NCBI GenBank assembly: GCA_963606965.1
Contig: CAVDAL010000032.1
Coordinates: forward strand, 25 to 64,024
DNA length: 64,000 bases
Direction: 5' to 3'
Origin: Acutalibacteraceae bacterium
Lineage (GTDB): Bacteria > Actinomycetota > Coriobacteriia > Coriobacteriales > QAMH01
Below the pieces are notes generated by a model. It was not told the DNA's origin and made no database searches. It saw only the letters and a list, made by a program, of their open reading frames with translations. Shown here piece after piece: positions 1,553 through 35,054 of this stretch. The translations under genes were made by a program, and so were the position numbers. Positions within the stretch are counted from its first letter, which is position 1; the number at the start of each line of letters is the position of its first letter.

Positions 1553-2635
1553 ATGAGAAAATCACAGAAAATGTCAAATAAAAAATTATTGTCTATTGCA
1601 ATTGGCTTGCTGCTTGTTGCAGGAATTGCTGGCGGTGGTGGTTCTGCAATAGAAAGCGGCTCTTCAAATTCTGCTGACAATGCTGCGCAAAGCGGACAAT
1701 CTTCACAATATTATTATTCAAGCGACGATCAAGATTCATATGGCAGCAGTTCAAGTGCGGATGAGTCAACTTCAAGTTCGTCTTCATCTTCTTCTAGCTC
1801 TGCATCTTCTGCCTCTTCAAATGATGAGTCAGAAAATGTTGGCAAAAATTCAAGTTTCAAAGTGACATTTTTTGATATTGGACAAGGAGATTGCGCGCTT
1901 GTGCAATGCAATGGGCACAACATGTTGATAGATGGCGGGCCGCAACCTGCGTCATCAACTTTGTATTCTTATTTTTTACGCAAAAAGATAAAGAAGCTTG
2001 ATTATGTTATTGCAACACATGCTGACACGGATCATACTGGCGGAATATCGGGTGCATTGCAGGTTGCAAAAGCGAAGCATGCATATTGTTCTGTGACTTC
2101 TTCATATCAACAAACATTTAATTCAATGAAGAAAATACTCAAAAGCCAAGGCGTTTCAATTAAAGTACCTGCTTGTGGCTCAAGTTTTAAGCTTGGGAAG
2201 GCAAAAGTTTATGTCATAGGCCCTGAAAATATCACGGAAAATGGCGACAATAATGACGATTCAATCATGCTGAAAATTACATATGGCAAGACTGTTTTTG
2301 TCTTTACGGGGGACGCAAATTATGATGAAGAAAAGTCTGCCTGCAAATATTTAGACGGATGCGATGTTTTGAAAGTTGCTCATCATGGTTCTGCATCTAG
2401 CAGCAGCTATCAATTTTTGCGCGCAGCAATGCCAAAGAATGCAATCATAAGCGTTGGGGCTGGCAATACTTATGGCCACCCGAAGGAAAAGGCTTTGTCG
2501 CGCTTGAAAGACTGCGGCGCAAAAATTTATAGAACAGATTTACAAGGCGACATTGTTGTGACTAGCAATGGCAAGAAGGTCAAAATTTCTGTATCAAAAA
2601 ATAAGAATGCTAATACTCTGCAACCCGGTAAGTAA
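1553..2635 (+). CDS. secreted or membrane-anchored MBL-fold hydrolase (ComEC C-terminal-domain-like) with a Ser-rich linker
   Basis: N-terminal hydrophobic anchor (LLSIAIGLLLVAGIAGGGG), a poly-Ser low-complexity linker, then the metallo-beta-lactamase signature ATHADTDHTGG (HxHxDH) and a downstream VAHHGS. Start is alternatively at 1571. Confidence 0.7.
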   Translation: MRKSQKMSNKKLLSIAIGLLLVAGIAGGGGSAIESGSSNSADNAAQSGQSSQYYYSSDDQDSYGSSSSADESTSSSSSSSSSSASSASSNDESENVGKNSSFKVTFFDIGQGDCALVQCNGHNMLIDGGPQPASSTLYSYFLRKKIKKLDYVIATHADTDHTGGISGALQVAKAKHAYCSVTSSYQQTFNSMKKILKSQGVSIKVPACGSSFKLGKAKVYVIGPENITENGDNNDDSIMLKITYGKTVFVFTGDANYDEEKSACKYLDGCDVLKVAHHGSASSSSYQFLRAAMPKNAIISVGAGNTYGHPKEKALSRLKDCGAKIYRTDLQGDIVVTSNGKKVKISVSKNKNANTLQPGK

Positions 2636-3089: not shown

Positions 3090-4061
3090 TTATTCAAGAG
3101 ATTTAAATCCAAGATCTGCCATTGTCATATCAAGGTTACTATCATTTACTATATTTTGTAATCTTTTAGTAATTGATTTAAGAATTGAAGGTGTGCAAGA
3201 ATTAAGAGAGGAAATATTAGAACTACTACTGGAAGCACGTGTGGATAATTTTAAGAGACTTTGCACATATTCTAAAGATTCAATAATATCAGAACTAGGG
3301 CTAGCATTGAAAACATTCGAGCTATCTATTGCCCAATCAGATAAATTATCTCCTAATTTATAATTTTCTACAAACCATACACTTTCAGCTTGTTCGTAAT
3401 GAGGATACAAAAAAGACATATTAGCAAATGTTCCATTTACCATTGCTATTATTCCGTGTTCATCTGTATATACGAATGAAAAGACAAACAACTTTGCAGT
3501 AGTGCTATTACCAGATTTATTATTATTATGATAAGAGATGTCAAAACCAGACTTGTCTTCGCGTACTGCAATCCAATTTAGTGATTTGTTTTCATTAAGC
3601 TTATCTTGATTCTTTTCTAAATAATTAAGAAACATATTCCATTTACATAAAGATAACTTATTATCACTATCTTTAAAATTATTCAGACCTTCGTATATAG
3701 AGGCAGCTTCTTGGTAACTTCCATTATTAAATAATGATTCGGCTTTATTGTATTTATAAAGCGGAATGCCTAAAGTAATCCCAAGAATAATTAATACAAC
3801 GCAGATACAAACAATAGAAATTATTATTGGTTTTTTATGAGATTTTTTAGGTTTTTCTTGAGGACTTTCTTCAGATGGAATATCTGGATTTTTGGAAATT
3901 TCATCTGGTGAATCATTATCAGGTTTATCTAAATTAGAAGGTTCGCTGTGGGTTTGCTCAGTTGCAGATGCGGCGGCTGCTATATCATCGGCAGCTTCAT
4001 CAATTTGAGCATCATTTAAATTGACATTTTCATTTTGGTTTTCATCCATAATTTCCTCCAA
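3090..4061 (-). CDS. hypothetical single-pass membrane protein (acidic disordered N-terminus, TM helix, extracytoplasmic domain)
   Basis: 323-aa ORF with an Asp/Glu/Pro-rich N-terminus, one clear TM segment (IIISIVCICVVLIILGITLGIPL) and a TPR-like YQEAASIYEGL segment. Lies in a markedly AT-rich stretch. I recognise no family. Confidence 0.5.
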   Translation of the reverse strand: MEEIMDENQNENVNLNDAQIDEAADDIAAAASATEQTHSEPSNLDKPDNDSPDEISKNPDIPSEESPQEKPKKSHKKPIIISIVCICVVLIILGITLGIPLYKYNKAESLFNNGSYQEAASIYEGLNNFKDSDNKLSLCKWNMFLNYLEKNQDKLNENKSLNWIAVREDKSGFDISYHNNNKSGNSTTAKLFVFSFVYTDEHGIIAMVNGTFANMSFLYPHYEQAESVWFVENYKLGDNLSDWAIDSSNVFNASPSSDIIESLEYVQSLLKLSTRASSSSSNISSLNSCTPSILKSITKRLQNIVNDSNLDMTMADLGFKSLE

Positions 4062-4330
4062 ACAATAAATGGTAATTGAACAAGTTAATGCTATATCTAA
4101 TTAGCCATAATGATTATGAAATAAGAAAGGCTTAGGAATCATAACTCCATTGATCTTTATTATGAAATGTGGCTGTCTTAATTTAAAAGGTGGCCACATG
4201 CTCAATGAAAGCAATGATAGGCAGTAGAGGATGCTGTTTCTTTTTTTCAATGTCTTCAATATTATCGAAAGGCGTTGTTATATTACATATTTTTCTTTCT
4301 TCGATTTTGCTCATTTTTTTGAAGCATTTG

Positions 4331-5626: not shown

Positions 5627-7600
5627 ATGGTTTTATCTAAAAAGCTAAGCAAGCTCACTCTGCCATTTGTTGTGCTTTTCATAACAATATTGATGTGCAC
5701 TTTTCTGTTGCCGCAACAGGCGCAAGCAGACGACTATTCTGTTACAAATGTTGATATAGACGCAACTGTTAAAGATGATGCTTCGCTACATGTTGTTGAA
5801 GATAGAACATTTTCTTTTGATGGCAGCTTTACTTGTGTTTGGTGGAAGTTTGATAGCTTGCCTCAAAATTCGACTCTCGACATAAATGGCGTAAGCCTTA
5901 AAACTGATGAAGATAGCAAGTGGCAAAAGCTCAAAAAAGTTGAATTTCAATATGAGTGGACTTATGAAGGCGGTCCTGGCGGTTTTGCATATTCAGTAGA
6001 TGAAGAAGATAAAGCTGTTTATGTCTTTTTTAAAGCAGAAGACACAGACATGCAAGTCATGCTTGATATGACATATAACAATGCTGTCCAAATTTATGAA
6101 GACACAGCAGAACTTTATTGGAAATATGTTGGCACTGATTGGGAAGTTGATTCAGAAAATGTAACAATGTCTTTGACTTTGCCGAATCCGTTTTCATCAT
6201 CCTTTGAACTTGGCAGCGACGTGTGCGCTTGGGGTCATGGTAATTTGAGCGGCAGTTTGGCTGCAGGCTCAGAAAATAATATCATTTATGATACAGGCAC
6301 TGTTAAGCCTGGCAAATATGCAGAAGCAAGAGTTTTGTTCCCAAAGTCATGGGTCAGTAATGCACCAAAAGTTGTGCTTAATGCACATAGCGGCATATAT
6401 CGCACAAATGAAGTTTTGGAACAAGAACAGCAATGGGCTGATGAAGCTAACAGAGAGCGCATGTTTGAGCGTCTCAAAATTTTTGGCTTTGCTGGTATTT
6501 GCTTGATAATAATTGTTGCTTGCATATTCATGTATTTGCGCTTTGGCAGAGAGTATAAGCCAAATTTCACTAATGACTACTGGCGCGACGACCCGCTGCC
6601 AGGCACCAACCCTGCTGTTATTGGCAGAATTTGGCGCATGAATAAAGAAGACAAGAATGACTTCATGACTGTCATTATGTATTTGTGCGACAAAGGCTTC
6701 ATTAATCTTGGTGTTGAAAAAGTTGAAAAAGACCGCTTGATTTTTGGCACAACAGAAGAAGAGCTTTATTATCTTGACCGTGTAAAGACAAAGTCTGAAG
6801 AAGACGAGCAAGGCCTGGATGACATAAGCAATGGTGTTCTTGATTTAATATTTAATAAAATTGGCAACAAACATGCAAAGCGTGTTTATCTTACAGAGAT
6901 AAGCGACTTTGCAAAAGATGACCCTGATAGCTTCAAGAGCGAAATTGAAAGCTGGCAAGCAAGTGTTGAAACAGAAACATTGCGCGGCGGCTTTTTTGAA
7001 CAGGCCTCTTTAAAGTGGCAAAAAAGGTCAAATGTTTTAAGCTTCCTTCCTCTTGTTGTTTCCTTTATTCTTTTAGTTATTTCAGATTTTGACTTAGTAT
7101 CAATTTGCGAATTTTTCTGCGCTCTTATAACTTTGGCTATCTGCCTTATTGTTTCTAGGGCAGTTTCAAAGCGCAGCCAGCTTGGTGCAGATGTTAATGC
7201 TAAATGCGAAGCTTTGCGCAAGTGGCTTAAAGACTTCACAGCGCTTGATGAATATGTTCCAACAGATATTAAAGTCTGGGGTAAATATATGGTTTATGCG
7301 CATCTGTTTGGCATTGCTGAAGAAGTTATGCATAAATTAAAGAATGCTATTCCAAGTGTCTTTGGTGAAGATGCATATACAGATGTTAATGACACGACTT
7401 ATATTCCATGGTACTGGTTCTGGTATTCGCATGGAAGTTATTCATATACAGGCAATTCATTCAATGATGTCTTTAGTGATAGCTTCACCGAAGCTTTTGA
7501 TGCTGCATTTTCTGATGATTCATCTGGTGGAGGATTCGGCGGAGGATTTTCCGGCGGCGGAGGCGGCGGCTTTGGCGGAGGCGGCGGCGGAGCCAGATAG
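5627..7600 (+). CDS. DUF2207-type membrane protein (usual LemA partner) with a Gly-rich C-terminal tail
   Basis: Signal peptide, large extracytoplasmic domain, several TM helices and a terminal SSGGGFGGGFSGGGGGGFGGGGGGAR tail. The position directly after lemA matches the conserved LemA-DUF2207 pairing. Confidence 0.7.
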   Translation: MVLSKKLSKLTLPFVVLFITILMCTFLLPQQAQADDYSVTNVDIDATVKDDASLHVVEDRTFSFDGSFTCVWWKFDSLPQNSTLDINGVSLKTDEDSKWQKLKKVEFQYEWTYEGGPGGFAYSVDEEDKAVYVFFKAEDTDMQVMLDMTYNNAVQIYEDTAELYWKYVGTDWEVDSENVTMSLTLPNPFSSSFELGSDVCAWGHGNLSGSLAAGSENNIIYDTGTVKPGKYAEARVLFPKSWVSNAPKVVLNAHSGIYRTNEVLEQEQQWADEANRERMFERLKIFGFAGICLIIIVACIFMYLRFGREYKPNFTNDYWRDDPLPGTNPAVIGRIWRMNKEDKNDFMTVIMYLCDKGFINLGVEKVEKDRLIFGTTEEELYYLDRVKTKSEEDEQGLDDISNGVLDLIFNKIGNKHAKRVYLTEISDFAKDDPDSFKSEIESWQASVETETLRGGFFEQASLKWQKRSNVLSFLPLVVSFILLVISDFDLVSICEFFCALITLAICLIVSRAVSKRSQLGADVNAKCEALRKWLKDFTALDEYVPTDIKVWGKYMVYAHLFGIAEEVMHKLKNAIPSVFGEDAYTDVNDTTYIPWYWFWYSHGSYSYTGNSFNDVFSDSFTEAFDAAFSDDSSGGGFGGGFSGGGGGGFGGGGGGAR

Positions 7601-7658
7601 TTGCGGTGAAGCTAGGCAGCTTTTAATAAAGCCAGAGTTGTTATATTGTTTTTTAGGG

Positions 7659-8857: not shown

Positions 8858-9522
8858 TTGGTTTTTGGAATTACACAATAGTGCTGACCTTTTTAGGTTT
8901 GGTATTTTCGATTTTTGGAATGACGCAAGCAGACGCAAATCACATGGTAATTGCTGTTGCATGTTTGGCTGCGTCTGGTTTATGCGATGCATTCGATGGT
9001 AGGGTAGCAGGCACAAAGACAGACAGAACTCAAAAAGAAGTTATCTTCGGCATACAACTTGATTCTCTTTGCGATGTTATTTGCTTTGGTATCTTCCCAG
9101 CAGTGATTTGCTATTCAAGTGGAGTTGGCCACTATATAGGCGGCATTGCTCTTAGCTATTATTGCATTTGCGCTGTTATTCGCCTTGCATTCTTCAATAC
9201 TTTGGAAACTGAAAAGCTTGGGCAAGAAGTCCAAACTGAAAAGGTCTATCATGGTTTGCCCATCACTTCAATTTCAATTATTTTGCCAATCATATTTTTT
9301 GTTTGCATGGTTTTTGTGCCAGAAAAAGCGCACCCAATTATTTATACATTTATGCTATTTATTGTTGGCACGCTTTTCATTCTTGACTTTAAACTCAAAA
9401 AGCCAAGCTTAAAACAACTGATTCTTATCATTGTTGTTGTATTTATTTTTGTTGTCGCATCATTTGTTGTATTTGGTTTAACTAAAGGCGGAACTACAAG
9501 TCTGTTTGGATTTATGCATTGA
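8854..9522 (+). CDS. pssA: CDP-alcohol phosphatidyltransferase (phosphatidylserine synthase type)
   Basis: CDP-alcohol motif DAFDGRVAG...GIQLDSLCDVICFG, multiple TM helices, and psd immediately downstream. Confidence 0.75.
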   Translation: MIGFWNYTIVLTFLGLVFSIFGMTQADANHMVIAVACLAASGLCDAFDGRVAGTKTDRTQKEVIFGIQLDSLCDVICFGIFPAVICYSSGVGHYIGGIALSYYCICAVIRLAFFNTLETEKLGQEVQTEKVYHGLPITSISIILPIIFFVCMVFVPEKAHPIIYTFMLFIVGTLFILDFKLKKPSLKQLILIIVVVFIFVVASFVVFGLTKGGTTSLFGFMH

Positions 9523-10388
9523 TTGCTCGCAAAAGAAATGGCGACAATGTTGAAGTTTATGATGCGCAAGGCGGTTTAATTAAATTTTTATATACAAACT
9601 GCTTTGGACGGGTTTTGCTATCTTTATTGGTTAAGCCGCCCGTCTCGCGTCTTGTTGGGCATTTCATGGATAGTGCGATTTCAAAGTTCATGATTAAGTC
9701 TTTTATTCGTAATAATAATATTGATTTGTCACAATATCAAAAGCAAGAATTTTCATCATATAATGACTGTTTTTGCAGAAAGATTAAGCCGCAGTTTCGC
9801 CCTTTTGATGATGAGTCAAGTCATCTTGTTTCGCCCTGTGATGCAAAGCTAACAATTTGCAATATAAGTGCAGATGTAAAGTTTGATATTAAAGGTCATA
9901 AATATACACTTTCTGAGCTTTTGAAGGATGAAAAATTAGCTAAGCATTATGACGGCGGCAAGCTGGCAATTTTTCGTCTTAGCGTGGACGACTATCACAG
10001 ATATAGCTTTTTTGATAGCGGCAAGATTATTTCACAGAAAAAAATCTCTGGAGTTTTTCATACTGTGAATCCTTTGGCTGTAAGTTTGCGCCCAATATAT
10101 AAAGAGAATACGCGGACATATTCTGTTTTAGAAACTCAAAATTTTAGTGAAGCAATTCAGATGGAAGTTGGAGCTTTGCTTGTTGGCAGAATTGTTAATG
10201 AAAGTCTAAATGCTGATGCGCATTTTAATAGAGGCGATGAAAAAGGTCACTTTGAATTTGGCGGATCAACAGTCATTTTAATTTTTGGGAAAGACGCAGT
10301 CACATTTGATGACGACATTGAAAAGAATAGTTCTGAAGATATTGAAACTATCGTCAAAATGGGAGAGCGCATAGGGCGTTCTAAATAA
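9519..10388 (+). CDS. psd: phosphatidylserine decarboxylase proenzyme
   Basis: C-terminal self-cleavage region GHFEFGGSTVILIF (G-S-T) and the overall Psd layout. TTG start overlaps the pssA stop by 4 nt. Confidence 0.8.
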   Translation: MIARKRNGDNVEVYDAQGGLIKFLYTNCFGRVLLSLLVKPPVSRLVGHFMDSAISKFMIKSFIRNNNIDLSQYQKQEFSSYNDCFCRKIKPQFRPFDDESSHLVSPCDAKLTICNISADVKFDIKGHKYTLSELLKDEKLAKHYDGGKLAIFRLSVDDYHRYSFFDSGKIISQKKISGVFHTVNPLAVSLRPIYKENTRTYSVLETQNFSEAIQMEVGALLVGRIVNESLNADAHFNRGDEKGHFEFGGSTVILIFGKDAVTFDDDIEKNSSEDIETIVKMGERIGRSK

Positions 10389-10397
10389 AAATACTCC

Positions 10398-10571
10398 ATA
10401 AAAGGAAAAACGAGCTAGGGAGGGGACCTAGCTCGTGGCCTGCAAAAAGAACCCTGTGAAATAATTCACTTTCAAGCCCAAGAAGCAGGGCCTGAGGCTT
10501 GAGGGATTGCAAGCCCTGCTCGAGGAGAAGGGGGCAGAGAGAAGATAGAGGAGGGTATTATCTTTCTGCAA
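10398..10571 (-). ncRNA. candidate small RNA (about 170 nt) with its own promoter and terminator and CU-rich anti-SD-like segments
   Basis: Minus strand: TTGACC (10605-10600), 17 nt, TATATT (10582-10577). A 10-bp terminator stem ACGAGCTAGG / CCTAGCTCGT (10411-10437) is followed on the minus strand by TTTTTCCTTTT. The 5' end GCAGAAAGA can pair with UCUUUUUGC just upstream of the terminator. Contains no ATG. Confidence 0.4.
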
Positions 10572-10624
10572 GAAGAAATATACTACATTTATTATTCACG
10601 GTCAAGAATAAATATTTAAATTGT

Positions 10625-11443
10625 TTATTTTTTCTTTGAAGCATGCGCTGCATACATTATGCTTGCAACAAGTATGCCCCCAATAATATTTCCAATTGTT
10701 ACAGGAATAAGGTTATTGATAATAAAACTTCCAAAATTCAAAACTGCTGTATTTATTCCAGCTTCAGCAATCATGCCTGCAAATGCAGAATTCATATTCG
10801 CAAAAATTCCAGCAGGGATGTAATACATATTTGCAACGCTATGTTCAAAGCCTGCAATAACAAATCCAAAGATTGGCAAGAACAAACCCATAATGCGTCC
10901 GGCTGTGTCATGCGCAGTGCTTCCTAAATAAACAGCTATGCAAACCAAGATGTTGCAGAACACGCCAAGTGCTAAAGCCTTTCCCCAGCTCAATGATGCT
11001 TTTGAGGCTGCTACTTTTGCAGTATATACAGCAAGTGCTCCGCCACCGATATCAAGCTGACCCAAAAAAGCCATGCATGCTGCTAAAGCAATAGCGCCAA
11101 CAAAATTGCCAACATATACAAGTCCCCAATTTCTTAAGAGCTTGCCTACTGTAATTTCTTTTGCATATACAGCAGAAATCATTAAGCAATTTCCTGTGAA
11201 AAGTTCTGTTCCAAGCAAAACAACCATAACCAAGCCAATAGGAAAGATTGCTCCGCTTACAAAGCGCACCATTCCAACATCGCTTAATGCATGCGCTGCA
11301 GTAGAAGATGCAACTGCGCCAAATCCAATTAAAACACCTGCAGCAATTCCCAAAACAAAAAGCTTCCACGCTGGAGCATTCGCTTTAGATATACTCGATT
11401 TTATGTAGTTGTCTGTGATTTCTGTAGGGCTGTTATAAGCCAT
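10625..11443 (-). CDS. formate/nitrite transporter (FNT) family channel
   Basis: Six-TM FNT layout with FLPIFGFVIAGFEHSVANMYYIP (the FNT central His region). SD GGAGGAACC precedes the ATG at 11443 (MAYNSPTEI...). Confidence 0.85.
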   Translation of the reverse strand: MAYNSPTEITDNYIKSSISKANAPAWKLFVLGIAAGVLIGFGAVASSTAAHALSDVGMVRFVSGAIFPIGLVMVVLLGTELFTGNCLMISAVYAKEITVGKLLRNWGLVYVGNFVGAIALAACMAFLGQLDIGGGALAVYTAKVAASKASLSWGKALALGVFCNILVCIAVYLGSTAHDTAGRIMGLFLPIFGFVIAGFEHSVANMYYIPAGIFANMNSAFAGMIAEAGINTAVLNFGSFIINNLIPVTIGNIIGGILVASIMYAAHASKKK

Positions 11444-11600
11444 GGTTCCTCCTAAGCTCATTCACACATTTGTGAATATCCATTATGTCTTGTGGATATT
11501 TATAAGGCATTGCAAGTTCAAGTTCTAATATGGCGTGGCATTGAACTTGGCATTCGTATTTGAATAATCTATAAGGCGCTTGCTTGCGTTTTGGCGCATG

Positions 11601-12314
11601 CTATTCAGAAATAATATCGCGTATAACTTTGGAAGCTATCATTTGACCCATGATTGCAGGGTAATATGAAATTGTTCCAATGTTTGCTCTGGCTTTGCGC
11701 GTGTTGTTATCTGCCGGAATGACAAGAGGCTCTTCAGGCGAATAGATGACCTGCATTTTTTCAAGCCCGCACTTTCTGGCATGCTTGCGAACAGCTTTAC
11801 ACATTCTGCATGTGTGAGTTTCATAGATATCTGCAAATTGCAACATTTGCGGGTCGAGCTTGTTCCCAGACCCAAGCGCGGCAATATAAGGAATTTCTAA
11901 GCTTTCAGCGCGCATTGCAAGAGCAACTTTTGTTGTGACAAGGTCTGCTGTGTCAACAATATAGTTTGGAACAAAATCCATCTTGCTGAAAAATTCATCA
12001 ATATTGTCAGGTAGCAGTTGCATAGAGATGCATTGAACTTTCGCGTCTGGGTTTATTTCTTTGATAATCGCAGACATCACTTCAAGCTTGCTTTTTCCAA
12101 TAGTGCTATTGAATGCAAGAGCTTGTCTATTTATGTTACTTTCGGAAACAATATCATAATCAACAAGGATAAATGCACCAATACCTGCGCGCGCCAAGCT
12201 TTCAACACAGTTGCTCCCGACGCCACCAATGCCAACCACTGAAACGCACGAATTAGCCAGTTCGCTAATTCCATGTTCGCCAATAAGGATTTTTGTTCGT
12301 TCATTAAAAGACAT
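11601..12314 (-). CDS. tcdA: tRNA threonylcarbamoyladenosine dehydratase (ThiF/E1-like)
   Basis: VSVVGIGGVGSNCVESLARAGIG..LVDYD..SNINRQ nucleotide-binding block plus the C-terminal CRMCKAVRKHARK segment typical of TcdA/CsdL. The likely start is the internal ATG at 12314 (MSFNERTK...). Confidence 0.7.
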   Translation of the reverse strand: MSFNERTKILIGEHGISELANSCVSVVGIGGVGSNCVESLARAGIGAFILVDYDIVSESNINRQALAFNSTIGKSKLEVMSAIIKEINPDAKVQCISMQLLPDNIDEFFSKMDFVPNYIVDTADLVTTKVALAMRAESLEIPYIAALGSGNKLDPQMLQFADIYETHTCRMCKAVRKHARKCGLEKMQVIYSPEEPLVIPADNNTRKARANIGTISYYPAIMGQMIASKVIRDIISE

Positions 12315-12459
12315 GGGAGTATTATATCCTATGGCTTGGGTGGGTGTTGCGCCGTCAGCACTTTGCTTATTTGTATTCGCGGAATTACATATTTTCAAGT
12401 CGGTAGTTTGCGTTACACTACTATAAGACATATGCCAATAGGAGTGAGGGGAAAGTTCC

Positions 12460-13341
12460 ATGGCTATAGGCACTAGTGGAAAACAAAGTATAAAAGAGAG
12501 GATAGCAACGCGTAATGCTGCAAGAAATGCAAAGCGCGATGCTGTGAATCAACATTATGCTGAAGTTGCAAATAATGTTCGCGCAATCACTCAAGATGAA
12601 AATCAATCATGTTCATCTGCATCTTCCTGCTCATGCAAAGATGCTAGAAGGCTTTATCCTGAACAGGTTATAGATGGAGTTCCTCAAGCAGCACTTCTTG
12701 CTTCTCGTGGCTGTGGCAATCCTTTTGACAGAACATGTTTAAAGGAAGGCGACACTGTTTTAGACCTTGGCTGTGGCGGCGGCATTGATGTTTTGTTAGC
12801 TGCACAAAAGGTTGGGGAAAGTGGTCATGTCACTGGCGTAGACATGACAGAAGAAATGCTTCAAATAGCCAGGGAAAATCAAGCCCTTACTAACATTACA
12901 AACGTTGACTTTGTTCAAGGATATCTTGAACATCTTCCATTTGATGATAATTCATTTGATTGCGTAATTTCTAATTGTGTTATAAATCTTTGTGAAGATA
13001 AAAGCAAAGTTCTGGCTGAAGCCTTGCGCGTTTTAAAGCCACTTGGCTGCTTTGTTGTTGCAGATATTGCTTTTGATTCTGCATATTATCAAGCACAAAG
13101 TGTGGATTCTGCTGCTGCAATCTTGGGCTGCACTTCTGGCGTTTTGGACATTCAGCAGTACAGAGGAATTTTAAACCAACTTGGTTTCTTAAGTTCAAAT
13201 ATTGAAATTTATAGGCGCTATCCTTATGAAACTTTGCAAGAAAAGGCACAGCAAAAAGGAATGCAGCAAGACTTAGCAGCATATTCTCCGCAATATATCG
13301 ATAATGCTTTTTGCGGTGTTTATGTTACAGCTTATAAATAA
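12460..13341 (+). CDS. arsM: ArsM-family SAM-dependent (arsenite-type) methyltransferase
   Basis: SAM motif VLDLGCGGGID plus the ArsM-specific Cys contexts: CSC near the N-terminus, SRGCGNP, ISNCVINL and ILGCTSG. SD GAGGGGA precedes the ATG. Confidence 0.7.
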   Translation: MAIGTSGKQSIKERIATRNAARNAKRDAVNQHYAEVANNVRAITQDENQSCSSASSCSCKDARRLYPEQVIDGVPQAALLASRGCGNPFDRTCLKEGDTVLDLGCGGGIDVLLAAQKVGESGHVTGVDMTEEMLQIARENQALTNITNVDFVQGYLEHLPFDDNSFDCVISNCVINLCEDKSKVLAEALRVLKPLGCFVVADIAFDSAYYQAQSVDSAAAILGCTSGVLDIQQYRGILNQLGFLSSNIEIYRRYPYETLQEKAQQKGMQQDLAAYSPQYIDNAFCGVYVTAYK

Positions 13342-13345
13342 GTTT

Positions 13346-14326
13346 TTAATCAAATAGCATTTTTAAAGGATATCTTGGCACATCCCAATCTTCGCCTTTG
13401 AGCGTTCTGATTTTATGCAAAACTTCATAAGCTAAAATGTCAAAATCTTCACTTGGCCTTTTGCCTCTTGGGCTTGTTCCAGCATCTGCCCAAAGCACAT
13501 TGCCAGCCCCTGTTCCAAAAGGAATGCTTTCCCCAGCGCACAAACGCATGATACATGCGAGCTGTTTGACTCGTGCGCCGCTTATTGTTTCTGTATTTTC
13601 CATAGCAGTGCCTCTGGCAGGCGTGAGCTTGCCAATTCCAGAACAATATGGCTTATAAGCAATGACTTCAAACATTCGCTGGACAATTTCTTTAGGATCG
13701 CTTGATGCTTGTACTGGTTCAACAGATGTCATTATTTGCAATCCTGCAGATACAGCAGCATCCAAAGTTGCTATGCGGCTTTGCGGATTGATTGAAGTTA
13801 TTGTTCCTTCTTCTAGCCTGTGTGCATGATAAATCGATTGCACGCCGAGCTTTTTGAGTTTTTGCGCTTGCTCAAACGTAATGTCTCCGATGTTTGCCAT
13901 TACAGGCATATTGTCTGAAATATTTTCACGCACTGCTTGTACAACTTCGCAAAATTGATCAAATGGATATGCTGCTGTGCTCATCAAGCTAATTAAGTGA
14001 GCGCCGCCTTTGTCAAAAGCTTGCGCAAATCTAACAATATCTTCAAGGGGAACAATCTGTTCATTTTTGCTATATGTATTTTGTTTTGCAGCAAATTTAC
14101 AAAAGTCGCAATTTGCGGGGCAAGGCAATTTGTCTAAGCCAATTTGTGCATAAACTTGACCGATATTTTTTGAAGCTTTTCTAGAAATTATCATTGCAGC
14201 ATTTATTGTGCATGCAGCTTCAAAAGAATCTGGCTCAAATTCCATAAATCGCAAAGCTTCTTCTTCATTTAAAAGCTTGCCACGCAAAACTTCATCAAGT
14301 CGTTTTTCTATCCATTTATCAAGCAT
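13346..14326 (-). CDS. radical SAM protein, BioB/HydE-like TIM-barrel class (paralog 1), function unknown
   Basis: Cluster motif CPANCDFC (CxxxCxxC) preceded by YAQIGL. Shares blocks with 16865-17878: TSVEPV vs TCVEPV, and GAGNVLWADAGTSPRG vs SGGNLTWAEVGSNPRD. Lies 18 nt downstream of the SufS-like fusion gene. Confidence 0.75.
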   Translation of the reverse strand: MLDKWIEKRLDEVLRGKLLNEEEALRFMEFEPDSFEAACTINAAMIISRKASKNIGQVYAQIGLDKLPCPANCDFCKFAAKQNTYSKNEQIVPLEDIVRFAQAFDKGGAHLISLMSTAAYPFDQFCEVVQAVRENISDNMPVMANIGDITFEQAQKLKKLGVQSIYHAHRLEEGTITSINPQSRIATLDAAVSAGLQIMTSVEPVQASSDPKEIVQRMFEVIAYKPYCSGIGKLTPARGTAMENTETISGARVKQLACIMRLCAGESIPFGTGAGNVLWADAGTSPRGKRPSEDFDILAYEVLHKIRTLKGEDWDVPRYPLKMLFD

Positions 14327-14344: not shown

Positions 14345-16507
14345 TTATCTGTCCCAATAAAGTTTTGAACAAAGTGAAACACTTGTAAGCAAAGCTTCAA
14401 TATCTTCAAGCGTTGTATGCACAGCAATGCTTGCACGTCCTGTGCCAATTGTACCAAAAGCGCCTGAAAGAGGAATTGCACAATGCGAACCTGCGCGAAT
14501 TGCAACGCCGCGATTCCCGCAGAAAGCTGCAAGCTGCGGCGGCGTGACGCCATCAAGTGAAAATGAAACAAGTCCATTTTGTCCATCAGCTTTTGAATGG
14601 TCGCCCCAAATTGTAATTCCCCAGATTTTCTTTAGCCCAGCAACAAGTGCTTTTGTCATTGCAACTTTGTGGTTTTGGCGTTCGCCTTCATCTAAGCTTT
14701 CAAGATAGTCGATTGCGCCACCCAAAGCTATAGCTTGTGAAATTGCAGGTGTGCCTGTTTCATATTGAATTGCGCCAAGTCTCAAATAGTAAGAGTCAAG
14801 CGACACATGAGAAATTACACCTCCGCCCAATGCAAGCGGGTCCATTTCTTCAAATGCATCTGGGTGAATCCACAAGCCACCAATCCCAAATGGTGCATAC
14901 ATTTTGTGCCCTGAAAATGCAATAAAATCAGCACCTGTTTTATAAACATCAATTTTTTGATGCGGCATTGATTGCGCAGCATCCAGCACAAATCTAGCTC
15001 CGCACTCATGTGCCATCTTTGCCATCTTTTCAACTGGCGCTTTAATTCCTGTGACATTTGAAATATGTGCAATGCAAACAAGCTTTGGCTTTTGTTCAAG
15101 AAGCTTTTCATAAGCTTCCATGTCAAGTCTGCAATCAGTTGTTAGCGGCAGGGCTTCCAATCTTGCACCCTTGCGTTGTGCCAAAGCAAGCCATGGCAAA
15201 TAATTTGAATGATGCTCAGCAATTGTGCTGATAATCAAGTCACCTTCAGAAATATTATGTTCGCCCCATGCTAAAGCAACAAGATTTAGCGAATCACTTG
15301 TATTCTTTGTATATACAGTTTCACGCCTGGAAGCGCCAATATAATCTTCCAACTTCGCTCTGGCATCATTTAGCATAGCCGTTGCTTTTGCAGAAAGCTC
15401 ATAAGCACCTCTATAAACATTTGCATTTTCATGCTTGTCAAAATTTTCCTGTGCTTGCAAAGCTTGGAAGCAACGCTGGCTTGTAGCAGCAGAGTCTAAA
15501 AATGCTAAGCTGTCTTTGTTTTTTGTATCCAGCAAAATGGGGAAGTTTTTGACTTGGCTTTTTCCAAAAGCATCCGCATCTGTTAGCTTTTTGCGCAAAG
15601 GCATAGGGAATGCTTTGTTTAAGGATGAAATAACATCTTTAGCTGCGTCGATAAGCTGCATATCAGCATTGTTATAGTTTTCTTTCTTGTGCTTTTTGCC
15701 TATGCTAAGCTTCATTTGTTCATGCGCAATACGCACAGCTTCACGCGCGCTCAAAGTGCATTCTTTTTCAAAGTCTTCAACGCGCTTGCAAGCTGGCAAA
15801 TTTGAGTCAAGGCGTTCTTCACCAAAATTATGATCCTTAATTTTGAGCATTGGAAGAATGCGCTCTTTTGGTGTCATTTCATAGATGGAATTTTCAAGCA
15901 AATCGCGCGAAACCAGAAGCGGAGTGTGGCGTGTCCATGCAATCCAAGATGTAACGCAATCAAGACTTGTATCATTGCGAAAATCTTGGCAAACTTCAAT
16001 TATGTGAGCAGGCGTCAACCTGACCTGGTCGCATGAAAGCAAGATAATTGAATCAATATCCGGATCATCTTCAATTTCTTCAAAAGCTATATCAAAAATC
16101 CCTTTTGTGAAACTGAACAAATCGAAAAAGCCAGATTCTTTGCTAGCTTTAGCATCCTTTTTGGAGTCATATCTAATTACGGAAGCATCATGTGCTAACT
16201 TTTTTGGCAACCTTAAATCTGGAGCTGCAATAATGTCAACGGATGCAAATTCGCACTGGCAAGCGCATTCATAAGATTGTTCAATCAAAGTCTTTTTCTG
16301 CCACACTTGCAAAGGTCTTGAGGCTTCTTTGCAAAGCTTTGGATCTTTACCAGGAATATCAGATTGCACTTTCAATGGAGTTGTGCCCATATTGTTTGCA
16401 AGAATGAATGCAGCTGTTCTTCCGCATGCTGCTTTCAACTCGTTTTTGCTTGGATTTTCCCGCTTAGGAATTTCCATGCTTGGTTGGTGCAACTTTCGAT
16501 CTTCCAT
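14345..16507 (-). CDS. fusion protein: unassigned ~340-aa N-terminal domain (possibly a degenerate MobA/MocA-like fold) plus a SufS/CsdA-type cysteine desulfurase
   Basis: C-terminal half carries LDSAATSQ, ANVYRGAYELS, AEHHSNYLPW, the PLP lysine in FSGHKMYAPFGIGGLW, ETGTP, and the active-site Cys in RAGSHCA. N-terminal half contains AAFILANNMGTTPLKV and IILLSCDQVRLTPAHI. SD AGAGGAG precedes the ATG at 16507. Confidence 0.75.
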   Translation of the reverse strand: MEDRKLHQPSMEIPKRENPSKNELKAACGRTAAFILANNMGTTPLKVQSDIPGKDPKLCKEASRPLQVWQKKTLIEQSYECACQCEFASVDIIAAPDLRLPKKLAHDASVIRYDSKKDAKASKESGFFDLFSFTKGIFDIAFEEIEDDPDIDSIILLSCDQVRLTPAHIIEVCQDFRNDTSLDCVTSWIAWTRHTPLLVSRDLLENSIYEMTPKERILPMLKIKDHNFGEERLDSNLPACKRVEDFEKECTLSAREAVRIAHEQMKLSIGKKHKKENYNNADMQLIDAAKDVISSLNKAFPMPLRKKLTDADAFGKSQVKNFPILLDTKNKDSLAFLDSAATSQRCFQALQAQENFDKHENANVYRGAYELSAKATAMLNDARAKLEDYIGASRRETVYTKNTSDSLNLVALAWGEHNISEGDLIISTIAEHHSNYLPWLALAQRKGARLEALPLTTDCRLDMEAYEKLLEQKPKLVCIAHISNVTGIKAPVEKMAKMAHECGARFVLDAAQSMPHQKIDVYKTGADFIAFSGHKMYAPFGIGGLWIHPDAFEEMDPLALGGGVISHVSLDSYYLRLGAIQYETGTPAISQAIALGGAIDYLESLDEGERQNHKVAMTKALVAGLKKIWGITIWGDHSKADGQNGLVSFSLDGVTPPQLAAFCGNRGVAIRAGSHCAIPLSGAFGTIGTGRASIAVHTTLEDIEALLTSVSLCSKLYWDR

Positions 16508-31739: not shown

Positions 31740-31776
31740 CAAACATAGACTTACATGTCGTGCTTGCAAATTCTCC

Positions 31777-31803
31777 AGAGCTGTTTATACAGCTCTTTTT
31801 TTA
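31777..31803 (+). terminator. expression-platform terminator of the glycine riboswitch
   Basis: AGAGCTGT / ACAGCTCT 8-bp stem with a TTAT loop, followed by TTTTTTT. Ends 20 nt before the SD/ATG of agcS. Confidence 0.75.
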
Positions 31804-31822
31804 TGTCGAAAGGAGAACAAGG

Positions 31823-33241
31823 ATGCTGTTACAGATAGTACAAACTATCAATTCGTATTTGTCGGATTATGTTTTGGTCATTTTGCTTATTGGCGTTGGC
31901 CTTTGGTTCACTATTCGCACTCGCTTTGTGCAGGTGCGCTGCTTTGGTGAAGGTATGCGCAGACTTTTTGGTAACTTCAGCTTGCGCGGCAAAAAGCATG
32001 ATAGTGGAATGAGTTCATTCCAAGCTTTAGCAACTGCAATTGCAGCACAGGTTGGTACTGGTAATATCATTGGTGCTTCTGGTGCGATTTTGACAGGTGG
32101 CCCTGGCGCGATTTTTTGGATGTGGATTATCGCATTCTTTGGCATGGCAACAAATTATGCTGAAGCAACACTTGCACAAAAGACTCGTAAAGTTGGCGAA
32201 GATGGGGAAGTTAAAGGTGGTCCTGTCTATTACATTCGCACAGCTTTTACTGGCGGCTTTGGTAAGTTTTTGGCTGGATTTTTTGCTGTTGCAATTACAT
32301 TAGCTTTAGGCTTCTTTGGCTGCATGGTTCAATCAAATTCAATTGGTTCAACTTTGGAAAATGCAATTGGAATTCCAACATGGGTTATGGGCATTATTCT
32401 TGTTTTAATTTGCGCTGTAATCTTTCTTGGTGGAGTTAACAGACTTGCTTCTGTAACAGAAAAACTTGTCCCACTGATGGCAATGATTTTCTTGATTGGT
32501 AGCTTATTTGTTTTGATTGTTCGCATTAAATATATTCCAGAAACATTCTATTTGATTTTTAAATATGCGTTCCACCCAGACGCAATTATTGGCGGCGGTA
32601 TTGGCTATGCTCTTAAAACTGCAATCAGCCAAGGTGCAAAGCGCGGCCTGTTTTCAAATGAAGCTGGCATGGGTTCAACTCCACATGCTCATGCTCTTGC
32701 AAATGTTAAAAAGCCACATGATCAAGGCGTTATGGCAATGATGGGTGTTTTCATCGATACATTTGTTGTTTTGACTTTGAATGCTTTGGTTATCATTTCA
32801 ACAATGTATGCAGGCGACGGCATTTTAGCTGGTGGCTATACTGACAGCCTTGTTGACATAATTGGTAAGTCGAATTTGGCGCAGATGGCATTCGGTACTG
32901 TTATGGGTGAAAAGTTCGGCTCTATCTTTGTTGCTGTTTGCTTGTTCTTCTTTGCATTCTCTACAATTTTAAGCTGGAATTTGTTCGGCAAAATTAATGT
33001 TAAATATATGTTTGAAAAATTCCTTGGCAAAAAGAGCACAATCATTTATACAGTAATTGCACTTATCTTTATTTTCATTGGCACGCTTGCTTCAAATGAT
33101 CTTGTTTGGGAACTTTCAGATATGTTTAACCAGCTGATGGTTATTCCAAATGCACTTGCACTATTTGCATTAACAAAGCTTGTTATCAGCGCTGTTAATG
33201 AAGGATATGCTGAAAAGAAAAAGCAAAAAGAAGAAAAATAA
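31823..33241 (+). CDS. agcS: sodium:alanine (glycine) symporter, AGCS family
   Basis: Polytopic AGCS pattern: SSFQALATAIAAQVGTGNIIGASGAI, GGPGAIFWMW, NEAGMGSTPHAHA. SD AAAGGAGAA precedes the ATG at 31823. The track start at 31760 lies inside the riboswitch platform. Confidence 0.85.
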   Translation: MLLQIVQTINSYLSDYVLVILLIGVGLWFTIRTRFVQVRCFGEGMRRLFGNFSLRGKKHDSGMSSFQALATAIAAQVGTGNIIGASGAILTGGPGAIFWMWIIAFFGMATNYAEATLAQKTRKVGEDGEVKGGPVYYIRTAFTGGFGKFLAGFFAVAITLALGFFGCMVQSNSIGSTLENAIGIPTWVMGIILVLICAVIFLGGVNRLASVTEKLVPLMAMIFLIGSLFVLIVRIKYIPETFYLIFKYAFHPDAIIGGGIGYALKTAISQGAKRGLFSNEAGMGSTPHAHALANVKKPHDQGVMAMMGVFIDTFVVLTLNALVIISTMYAGDGILAGGYTDSLVDIIGKSNLAQMAFGTVMGEKFGSIFVAVCLFFFAFSTILSWNLFGKINVKYMFEKFLGKKSTIIYTVIALIFIFIGTLASNDLVWELSDMFNQLMVIPNALALFALTKLVISAVNEGYAEKKKQKEEK

Positions 33242-33271: not shown

Positions 33272-33301
33272 AAAGCGCCGCATTTTTTGCGGCGCTTTTT
33301 T
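33272..33301. terminator. bidirectional terminator between agcS and the convergent SufS-like gene
   Basis: AAAGCGCCGC / GCGGCGCTTT 10-bp stem flanked by an A-run and a T-run. Confidence 0.7.
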
Positions 33302-35054
33302 AATTTTTGCAAATTGATATTAAAACATTCAAGAACTTATCAATGTCTTCAAAACTGTTATAGCATGCAATAGATGCACGAACTGTTGAATCAAAACCAA
33401 GAGAATTAAGATATGGTTGCGCGCAGTGACGCCCAGAGCGTACTGCAATTCCATAGCTGTCTAGAATTTGTGCGCATTTATATGAAGACATGCCATCTAC
33501 AACAAAAGATATGGCTCCAATGCGTTCAGAACTTCTGCCAAATATTTTAATTTTTGGAATTTCTTCTAATCCCGATTGAATTTTATCCATAAGTTTTTGC
33601 TCATGATTTATGCGTGAATCTTCATCTATTAAAGTCCAAAAATTAATTGCAGCAGCAAGAGAAATTGCACCGTCAATAGGGGGAGTTCCAGGCTCGAACC
33701 GTTCAATTCCATTGCGCAAGATAAATGAACTTGTTGTGACATTTTCAACAGTTCCTCCTCCAAAAGTGCATGGCTGAAGTGTTTTTAAAAGCTCACTTTT
33801 AACCCAAAGTGCTCCAACTCCTGCAAGAGAACCAAGCTTGTGACCAGAAAATGCATACATATCACAATCAAGCTCTTTTGGCTTGTGACATGCATGGACT
33901 GCCCCTTGCGCTCCATCTATGATAATTATTGCATCTGATTTCTTCCTGGCTATGCTTGTGAGTTTCTGGTGTGGTATAGAGATTCCAGAAACATTTGAAA
34001 GCTGTGTAAATGAAAGAATGGCTGTGTTTTCGTCAATGATTTCATTAGCACTTTCTATGTTTAAAGTTCCATCTTCAAGCACTGGGATTATGCGAAGTTC
34101 ACAAGATTTTTCTTTAGCTAAATTCATCCAAGGAAGCAAATTTGAATGATGTTCCATTTCAGTTATGACAATATTTGATTTTTTGCCAAGTTTATTGCTT
34201 AGCATCCTTGCAGCTTTATTAAGCCCGTCGCTTGTGCCATAAGTAAAGATGAGTTCTTCTGCTTTAACATCTAAAAATTTTGCAACTTGCATTCTTGCTG
34301 AATCAAAAGCATCTGAACAAAGCTGAGACAATTTGTGTGTGCCTCTGTGGACATTTGAATAATTGCCTTGGCGCAGTTTGGTAATGCTTTGAATAACTTT
34401 TTGCGGCATCTGCATGCTGGCAGCATTATCCAAATAAACAAGACTGTGCCCATTAATTTCTTGCTGGAAAGCGCGAAATTGCAAGCGCAAAGCTTCATAA
34501 TCAAAGCATGATAAATTTTGTTTTTTGGAAGCGGCGACCTTATCTTGTGGGCTTTCATTGTGCATCACTGCAACTGCACAATTTTTGCCTGTACATTTTT
34601 TGATTGCTTCTATTAAGACATCAGCTAATTCGCTAATATTTTCCGCAAGGGCTGCCTTCATTGTGTCAAGCTTCACATTAAAATCGTTTTGAATCGCCAT
34701 CATCAGCAGAGCTTGTTTTGTATCAAGCGTACTTGCTCCATCACAAGTGGCAGAACGCAAAGATTCTTTAGCTAATTTTGGGTTTAATTTAAAAGCTTTA
34801 TCAATGCTTTTTTGTGTCAATTTGTCAAAGTCACAATTGCATTTTAATGTGTCGGCAAGTTCCAAAAGGTCAAATTTTGCGAGTATATAAAGCTTTAATT
34901 GCTCATCTATATAATCTTTTGAATAATTGTTCGACTGCACATTCTTAAGTATATTATTTGTGCAAGCAGAGGCTACTGACTCTCGCTTTTCAGTAGCCTC
35001 ATTTTTTATTTGCGTTGCCTGTTTCATAAGTGAAAATGTAGAAAATTTATGCAA
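33300..35054 (-). CDS. SufS/CsdA-type cysteine desulfurase with a ~185-aa N-terminal extension (carrier-protein-like helical segment)
   Basis: YLDNAASMQ, SNVHRGTHKLS, MEHHSNLLPW, PLP lysine in FSGHKLGSLAGVGALW, FEPGTPP, active-site RSGRHCAQP. The N-terminal extension contains CDGASTLDTKQALLMMAIQNDF. 8-nt overlap with the upstream gene. Confidence 0.75.
   Translation of the reverse strand: MHKFSTFSLMKQATQIKNEATEKRESVASACTNNILKNVQSNNYSKDYIDEQLKLYILAKFDLLELADTLKCNCDFDKLTQKSIDKAFKLNPKLAKESLRSATCDGASTLDTKQALLMMAIQNDFNVKLDTMKAALAENISELADVLIEAIKKCTGKNCAVAVMHNESPQDKVAASKKQNLSCFDYEALRLQFRAFQQEINGHSLVYLDNAASMQMPQKVIQSITKLRQGNYSNVHRGTHKLSQLCSDAFDSARMQVAKFLDVKAEELIFTYGTSDGLNKAARMLSNKLGKKSNIVITEMEHHSNLLPWMNLAKEKSCELRIIPVLEDGTLNIESANEIIDENTAILSFTQLSNVSGISIPHQKLTSIARKKSDAIIIIDGAQGAVHACHKPKELDCDMYAFSGHKLGSLAGVGALWVKSELLKTLQPCTFGGGTVENVTTSSFILRNGIERFEPGTPPIDGAISLAAAINFWTLIDEDSRINHEQKLMDKIQSGLEEIPKIKIFGRSSERIGAISFVVDGMSSYKCAQILDSYGIAVRSGRHCAQPYLNSLGFDSTVRASIACYNSFEDIDKFLNVLISICKN

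Follow-up and report, generated by a model that had tools for sequence, protein, structure and literature searches.

The window analyzed here is a 64,000-nucleotide (nt) stretch of contig CAVDAL010000032.1, in which a gene of the formate/nitrite transporter (FNT) family on the minus strand converges with the psd gene on the plus strand. In the gap between the two lies the subject of this study, a predicted non-coding RNA that is read from the minus strand (Table 1). The proposed RNA gene has its own promoter and its own intrinsic terminator, both of them predicted and both conserved. An earlier reading of the window, referred to below as the original prediction, had described the gap as encoding an independent, non-coding, C/U-rich small RNA (sRNA) resembling the C-rich sRNAs of Gram-positive bacteria, and that description is supported by conservation at the sequence level and by a non-coding pattern of change. 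We regard it as very probable that the locus holds a genuine gene for a non-coding RNA and that this gene is under selection, and, as far as sequence comparison can speak, the pattern of conservation is decisive that the locus exceeds chance.

Relatives of the locus were metagenomic contigs or contigs of metagenome-assembled genomes, reached through homologues of the psd and FNT proteins; the psd homologues from metagenome assemblies formed a ladder of 98, 88, 71, 69, 66, and 56% identity. The unit of promoter, RNA, and terminator was found at 13 loci, in 4 distinct sequences, and always in the order FNT, RNA, and convergent psd. The most distant carrier is locus L084, and the identities that follow were reckoned between the window and this locus. 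The RNA is ~95% identical, and neither nt 1-78 nor the 3' strand of its closing helix, P1, shows any change. Nucleotide identity was 71.6% for psd (51% at third codon positions), 80% for the CDP-alcohol phosphatidyltransferase gene, 77% for the LPG synthase gene, 74% for the FNT gene, and 67% and 45% for two other intergenic regions. When identity was taken per 50-nt window, the RNA gave 90-100% versus 54-88% in the coding flanks, making the RNA unit the best-conserved part of the locus. The changes that do occur in the RNA are confined to indels at a helix base and in the loop of hairpin H4, one linker substitution, one compensatory pair in the terminator, and the substitution G79A; in H4, the 1-2-nt insertions and the one substitution of the relatives fall in the loop only. 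We conclude that the RNA and its promoter are under strong purifying selection. Absence from close relatives, or lack of conservation in them, had been named as the outcome that would count against the sRNA, and what we found is the opposite of absence.

All sequence features listed in the original prediction were recovered, none more than 1 nt from its stated position. The near-consensus minus-strand promoter, TTGACC-17-TATATT at 10605-10577, is present as originally described. It matches the consensus at 10 of 12 positions, and only one other match of this quality was found in the region 9000-12500. Across the variants, TTGAC(C/T) and TAT(A/C)TT are retained, and the 17-nt spacing is constant despite substitutions within the spacer; the discriminator and the spacer sequence vary. 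Upstream of the promoter, similarity ends at about -42, and beyond that point L084 and a second carrier, L083, are unrelated to the window. In L083, ~230 nt of additional, unrelated, A/T-rich sequence (L083 1424-1665), absent from the other lineages, extends from the FNT stop codon to the RNA promoter; here too, conservation sets in at about -42. At the other side of the promoter, the block of complete invariance starts at 10571, within the zone expected for +1 at 6-8 nt past the -10 hexamer. Because the hexamers and their spacing are kept amid diverging surroundings and invariance sets in at 10571, the promoter appears to be under selection and the 5' end of the RNA would lie at about 10570. 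Thus, we infer a transcription start at 10569-10571, ~7 nt past what would be a sigma-A-type promoter, which itself lies 20 nt beyond the FNT stop codon.

The strong minus-strand terminator with a 10-bp stem had also been foreseen, at coordinates that agree with ours within 1 nt, together with its C-rich loop, UCCCCUC, which is present. The stem at 10436-10410 contains 10 pairs, 6 of them G-C, and its 7-nt loop is followed by the T-run UUUUUCCUUUU. We placed the 3' end of the RNA inside this run (10401-10410), which lies ~10 nt from the psd stop codon. At the top of the stem, L084 and another locus, L122, share one compensatory change from G-C to A-U. The RNA has a G+C content of 50% versus 40% for the window as a whole and 30-36% in the immediate flanks, in agreement with the earlier remark that the region is richer in G+C than its surroundings.

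Between the FNT stop codon and the RNA (10437-10625), the terminator scan found no minus-strand terminator, so the FNT mRNA probably ends at the terminator of the RNA. Consequently, the FNT mRNA probably has this RNA as its 3' end too, which may be a second way in which the RNA is produced. In enterobacteria, the 'type I' sRNAs of 3' untranslated regions (3' UTRs), such as MicL and DapZ, have their own promoter at or after the end of the upstream coding sequence and share a terminator with the mRNA. The arrangement described here is like theirs, with a promoter near the end of a coding sequence and a shared terminator; here the promoter lies just outside the FNT coding sequence. We also considered a cis-regulatory leader or riboswitch and rejected it, because no gene lies downstream on the same strand and the predicted terminator of the RNA stands ~10 nt from where the convergent psd gene stops.

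Table 1. Features of the FNT-psd intergenic region and its flanking genes. Positions are those of the window; nt numbers count from the predicted 5' end of the RNA; MFE, minimum free energy; ORF, open reading frame; L083 and L084, carrier loci.
Feature	Position	Strand	Basis or remark
psd gene, convergent; last gene of the LPG synthase / CDP-alcohol phosphatidyltransferase / psd cluster	9519..10388	+	Pfam PF02666
Predicted non-coding RNA, ~170 nt	10401..10570	-	Fold z = -6.3; no ATG; 95-100% identity in 13 loci
Intrinsic terminator: 10-bp stem, loop UCCCCUC, T-run UUUUUCCUUUU	10401..10436	-	Terminator scan; also in L083 and L084
P1, 3' strand: AGGGU UCUUUUUGC, nt 116-129	10442..10455	-	Invariant
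H4 hairpin: GUGAA-UUAU-UUCAC, nt 102-115	10456..10469	-	MFE and consensus fold
P3 hairpin: 12-bp stem GAGCAGGGCUUG / CA(G/A)GCCCUGCUU (nt 50-61 / 77-88), 15-nt loop CAAUCCCUCAAGCCU	10483..10521	-	RNAalifold consensus
Pyrimidine tract, 34 nt: CCCUCCUCUAUCUUCUCUCUGCCCCCUUCUCCUC, nt 16-49, three CCUC motifs	10522..10555	-	Mostly unpaired; 100% invariant
P1, 5' strand: nt 2-10 GCAGAAAGA, internal loop UAAU, nt 15-19 ACCCU	10552..10569	-	Invariant in all variants
-10 hexamer: TATATT (TATCTT in relatives), 17-nt spacer	10577..10582	-	Promoter scan
-35 hexamer: TTGACC (TTGACT in relatives)	10600..10605	-	Promoter scan; kept in 4/4 sequence variants
FNT (formate/nitrite transporter family) gene	10625..11443	-	Pfam PF01226; ORF extends to 11461

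The 173-nt RNA folded with an MFE of -64.9 kcal/mol, a value that 0 of 200 shuffled sequences equalled (z = -6.3). The helices P1, H4, and the terminator (nt 135-161) are common to all variants. In P1, nt 2-10 pair with nt 121-129 and nt 15-19 with nt 116-120. These pairs belong to the MFE structure and have an ensemble pairing probability >0.98, so that the closing pairing proposed originally, of GCAGAAAGA..ACCCU at the 5' end with AGGGU UCUUUUUGC near the 3' end, is predicted with near certainty by the folding model. The exposed pyrimidine tract, proposed at ~35 nt, was found at 34 nt and is mostly unpaired, with an unpaired probability of mostly 0.8-1.0 at nt 20-33 and nt 38-49. Pyrimidines make up 32 of its 34 positions, and it is the sole tract of this kind on either strand of the window.

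The central domain was predicted in two ways. RNAalifold returned as its consensus a fold with P3 and a short helix P2 (GCCC/GGGC), which also has the lowest energy (MFE) in three of the four variants; in the variant of the window itself, two hairpins (nt 56-75 and nt 76-99) are favored over P3 by 3 kcal/mol. Thus, the GCAGGGC/GCCCUGC hairpin with its AUCCCUCA loop, as originally drawn, holds for the consensus and for three variants, and in the window variant it lies 3 kcal/mol above the alternative. Whichever fold is assumed, a wobble pair benefits from the substitution G79A: U.G becomes U-A in P3, and G.U becomes A-U in the alternative. Variation among the variants is too scarce for the two folds to be told apart. 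The pyrimidine tract, the loop of P3 (or of H2), and the terminator loop are unpaired in every fold. An alternative 5' hairpin was energetically poor (-37 kcal/mol) and was dropped.

The unpaired segments are rich in short C-rich motifs. In the domain closed by P1, the exposed 15-nt hairpin loop is AAUCCCUCAAGCCU, and UCCC is found in two loops, that of P3 (AAUCCCUCA) and that of the terminator (GUCCCCUC); unpaired probabilities of the motifs are 0.8-1.0. The motif CCUC occurs 6 times in the RNA versus 0.15 times expected from the frequencies of the window. Shuffles of the RNA's own composition contain it 1.76 times on average, and 9 of 2000 shuffles reach 6. The DNA of H4 (10456-10471, AGTGAA-TTAT-TTCACA) was considered as an operator for Rex, whose consensus we take to be TGTGAA-N4-TTCACA. 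This candidate was rejected, as the spacing of the half-sites is increased by 1 nt in L122 and by 2 nt in L084; the likeness is probably a coincidence, with H4 just an RNA hairpin.

To compare the RNA with known families, Rfam 15 was scanned over the whole window at the gathering threshold and over 10300-10700 at E <= 10. No family was found for the RNA (including 6C, 6S, LhrC, Y RNA, and riboswitches as far as represented there), only noise below the cut-offs. Matches to RsaE, ncr952, and lncRNA models at E <= 10 were far under their cut-offs and were rejected as noise. The covariance model of RsaE/RoxS (RF01820) gave 14.9 bits versus a gathering score of 79 (E = 6, over 10407-10512), and the duplicated signature of RoxS, CCCCUUUGUU, is absent from the RNA. 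Since no Rfam family matches, the resemblance to C-rich sRNAs is one of kind and not of family; the earlier comparison with RsaE/RoxS and 6C therefore stands as a likeness, and membership in any Rfam 15 family does not.

The likeness has several parts. Like RoxS/RsaE, the RNA is non-coding, with a promoter and a terminator predicted at its bounds, has several unpaired C-rich regions, and is strongly conserved (PMC4409812, PMC2790875). In contrast, RoxS/RsaE is ~100-115 nt long and belongs to Bacillales, whereas the RNA here is ~170 nt long with a helix closing its 5' and 3' ends, has a 34-nt pyrimidine tract, and comes from a Clostridia-like host; its motif is CCUC/UCCC, where that of RoxS/RsaE is CCCC. 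LhrC of Listeria monocytogenes is similar in that the RNA here carries UCCC/CCUC in the P3 loop, in the single-stranded tract, and in the terminator loop. However, LhrC is multicopy (five homologues), and the RNA here is single-copy in the window, is larger, has a closing helix, and shows no sequence similarity to LhrC. With 6C of Actinobacteria, it shares C-rich unpaired elements and high conservation (PMC6486639). The two differ in phylum and in fold, since 6C has two C-rich hairpin loops whereas the main C-rich element here is a long unstructured tract, and no Rfam match of 6C to the RNA was obtained at E <= 10. As in the C-rich/UCCC-motif class, whose unpaired motifs lie where the RNA is most conserved (PMC2790875), nt 1-78 are invariant and carry most of the motifs. 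We conclude that the element is most likely a new trans-acting sRNA of the C-rich/UCCC-motif type that falls outside the RoxS/RsaE, LhrC, and 6C families.

The distribution of the RNA was followed outward from the carriers. At the equivalent position it is missing from the psd relatives of 69%, 66%, and 56% identity, from the locus of the 462-amino acid (aa) psd homologue P0006, and from the loci of FNT homologues at 75%, 73%, and 69% identity. In the 69% psd relative (locus L085), the slot convergent to psd is occupied by a tRNA-Cys gene at 3995-4068 on the minus strand; a second tRNA-like T-arm was seen by eye near the end of that contig. A scan of GTDB species genomes with the FNT protein returned a best relative of 69% identity with no RNA downstream, and nhmmer over 125 loci detected no divergent copy. 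There is no second copy in the window, where the RNA is thus single-copy, and searches of viral contigs (with two 21-mers), plasmids, and phages gave no match. Scanning JGI metagenomes with the 19-mer CCCTCCTCTATCTTCTCTC returned 26 matches, all of them chance hits on a CT-rich word without extended similarity; this word is repetitive, and a less repetitive one may have suited the scan better. The carrier organism was seen solely in ENA, Logan, and NCBI assemblies. An RNA borne by a mobile element, phage, or plasmid was rejected given the single copy, the lack of a match in these collections, and the same chromosomal context at all 13 loci. We propose that the RNA represents a new family, limited as far as seen to one narrow clade of uncultured Clostridia-like bacteria, a label that comes only from the best named matches of psd (~52%, to proteins of Ruminococcus and Lachnospiraceae type).

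Previous work offers a clear precedent for what such an RNA might do. RsaE, RNAIII, and further Rsa RNAs use unpaired UCCC motifs to bind Shine-Dalgarno (SD) sequences and block the formation of initiation complexes (PMC2790875). The C-rich regions of RoxS block translation of ppnKB and trigger decay by RNase III and RNase Y (PMC4409812). The C-rich loops of 6C, which is 91% conserved among mycobacteria, bind the G-rich ribosome-binding sites of multiple mRNAs without a chaperone (PMC6486639). In these and other cases, the SD region is bound by unpaired UCCC or C-rich motifs that lie in loops, single strands, or terminator loops (PMC2790875, PMC4409812, PMC4132741, PMC6486639). By analogy, we give a probability of roughly 0.5 to the reading that the RNA pairs in trans with SD regions. 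In the proposed mechanism, the 14-bp helix P1 would join the 5' and 3' ends of the RNA and close a domain, which would display unpaired, G-poor, C-rich segments, namely the pyrimidine tract and the 15-nt hairpin loop; the terminator loop would lie outside P1. The CCUC/UCCC repeats, complementary to GGAGG/GAGG, would then bind the G-rich ribosome-binding sites of several mRNAs, and pairing would block 30S binding and probably open the mRNA to RNases. Genes of the window use GGAGG/GAGG as their SD sequences, so complementary partners for the repeats exist.

Several observations weigh against this reading. Promoter-like and terminator-like patterns were not enriched over shuffled sequence (9 versus 9.0 expected and 4 versus 3.0 expected, respectively); since such hexamers are as common in shuffled sequence, the case for the promoter comes down to its conservation. 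Two central-domain folds compete within 3 kcal/mol, and covariation was not above controls in a set of only 4 variants, in which 41 of the 47 tested pairs never vary. When the tract was scanned against the whole window with RNAduplex, the top non-self duplexes, at -30 to -34 kcal/mol, were matched by those of shuffled tracts. No specific mRNA target emerged from this 64-kb scan; any SD would fit. The strongest duplexes of the tract, which shuffled tracts again equal, were with two purine-rich segments, one at 7526-7610 (+), at the 3' end of a DUF2207 gene, and one at 1776-1815 (-). In addition, ~95 nt show no change at all, and these take in both strands of helices. Seed pairing strictly needs less than that, which leaves room for a protein-binding or decoy role. 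Finally, no copy of the RNA was found beside psd or FNT once the next-closest relatives were reached, which makes for a narrow or uncertain distribution.

One alternative is that the element amounts to no more than a structured 3' UTR with a terminator, belonging to the FNT mRNA and acting, for instance, as a stabilizer or processing module with no independent role in trans. FNT transcripts must cross the RNA to reach the common terminator, FNT and the RNA are linked in 13 of 13 loci, and the promoter-like hexamers are not significant by themselves. We nevertheless think it unlikely that this is the whole explanation. The -35 and -10 hexamers and their spacing are kept amid divergence, and invariance begins at +1 and not at the FNT stop codon. 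Even where FNT and the promoter have been moved apart by the insertion in L083, the conserved block begins at the usual place upstream of the promoter. A stabilizer, moreover, needs neither 95 invariant nt nor a 34-nt unpaired tract, and FNT homologues elsewhere do without the RNA.

A second alternative looks to the other flank. The RNA could be a cis-antisense regulator of the operon of LPG synthase, CDP-alcohol phosphatidyltransferase, and psd, in which pairing or polymerase collision would set the 3' end or the stability of the psd mRNA. The terminator scan found no plus-strand intrinsic terminator after psd before 11362, and only on the minus strand is the hairpin past psd followed by a T-run. 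In L083, a terminator-like hairpin on the plus strand lies just past the RNA gene (1462-1475), as though psd transcripts traverse it. Given a psd gene without a terminator and this hairpin in L083, antisense overlap with psd read-through is plausible, as an extra or an alternative role, and the RNA does adjoin psd at every locus. However, complementarity to a convergent transcript is automatic and explains neither the invariance, nor the repetition of the motif, nor the conserved fold, and psd relatives at 56-69% identity manage without the RNA. As the sole function of the RNA, antisense control therefore seems improbable to us; it would be compatible with anti-SD pairing, the two roles not being exclusive.

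Similarly doubtful is a role in which the RNA binds or sequesters a protein, as a decoy or in a ribonucleoprotein (RNP), with a pyrimidine-binding, S1-like or Csp-like protein or Rho engaging the CCUC/UCCC motifs and the tract. Such a role would account for the ~95 consecutive invariant nt, including both strands of P1 and of P3, at a distance where synonymous sites are near saturation, for the sixfold recurrence of a short motif, and for the failure of any specific mRNA target to stand out in the duplex scan of the window. On the other hand, the locus has no linked gene for a candidate partner, and the motif is the exact anti-SD core, for which precedents of RNA-RNA pairing are ample. Rho utilization (rut) sites are C-rich and G-poor, and a 34-nt tract is short for a full rut site. 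We know of no CCUC-motif-binding protein of this sort in Firmicutes; the GGA-repeat RNAs CsrB and RsmZ follow an analogous decoy logic. In its most far-reaching form, which we hold to be just as unlikely, the RNA would be an abundant protein-binding or RNP decoy of this uncultured Clostridia clade that titrates a pyrimidine-specific protein, Rho, or, as an anti-SD mimic, a pool of SD-bearing mRNAs. If true, that would explain why ~95 nt, both helix strands included, are unchanged at near-saturated synonymous divergence.

The absence of an ATG, noted in the original prediction, was borne out for the whole 173-nt RNA strand. TTG-start ORFs of 43-47 aa can be drawn mechanically on both strands, and as candidate small proteins they failed comparison with the relatives. 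The relatives differ by 1-2-nt indels, which throw the minus-strand frames out of register. The plus-strand TTG ORF lacks a properly spaced SD and is 46 aa long in the window and 30 aa long in L083 and L084; all its codon positions are 100% identical over 27 codons, compared with 51% at third positions in the neighboring genes. Identity at every codon position, together with the indels, indicates that the constraint acts on nucleic acid and not on protein. Thus, it is very improbable that the region encodes a small protein on either strand, or is a chance or DNA-level feature. In favor of coding, the TTG-start ORFs do overlap it on both strands; against it stand the RNA strand's lack of any ATG, the frameshifting indels, and the RNA-level substitution pattern.

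The flanking genes have features of their own. The FNT protein matched NCBIfam models of the fnt/FocA-like type below their cut-offs, and the true start of its gene is probably the ATG at 11443, which is preceded by an AGGAGG SD sequence. Its closest named relatives belong to Eggerthellaceae and Adlercreutzia (Actinomycetota), at 67-73% identity, whereas those of psd belong to Clostridia, at ~52%. This difference in kinship, with a G+C content of 40% in the window, suggests that the FNT gene was horizontally transferred between gut or rumen lineages. In its 5' leader, between a putative -10 hexamer (CATAAT) and the SD sequence, lies an operator-like perfect palindrome, ATTCACA-AATG-TGTGAAT (11459-11478). 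The exact palindrome, examined as TTCACA-N4-TGTGAA for a possible role as a shared operator, was found only in loci of the window type, that is, of the same species.

Elsewhere in the window, the sole Rfam match at gathering level was a glycine riboswitch aptamer (RF00504, 31651-31747, plus strand, 58.4 bits). It lies directly upstream of a gene for an agcS-family amino-acid carrier (31760-33241, plus strand), which is an ordinary arrangement. Two cysteine desulfurases of the SufS family, encoded on the minus strand at 14345-16507 and 33300-35054, have N-terminal extensions of ~320 and ~185 aa and scored 348 and 381 bits against the model 'family 2A encapsulin cargo cysteine desulfurase', for which the cut-off is 800. 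An encapsulin shell gene was not recognised, and the neighbor of one SufS gene (13346-14326) gave a weak radical-SAM match only. A 506-aa protein encoded at 44113-45633 (+), with a VgrG3-like C-terminal domain and an SH3_3 domain, is probably a secreted cell-wall hydrolase.

To our knowledge, very few sRNAs of Clostridia have been characterized; from the uncultured gut or rumen lineages to which this locus seems to belong, there is none. The terminator shared with FNT and the convergent phospholipid operon, which lacks an intrinsic terminator of its own, invite the speculation that regulation here ties the membrane to anaerobic or redox metabolism. The RNA is a candidate with predicted ends and defined motifs, and it represents an incremental addition, without a new principle. 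As an sRNA that pairs with SD regions, it would carry the C-rich anti-SD regulation of Bacillales, Listeria, and Actinobacteria into another branch of the Gram-positive bacteria.

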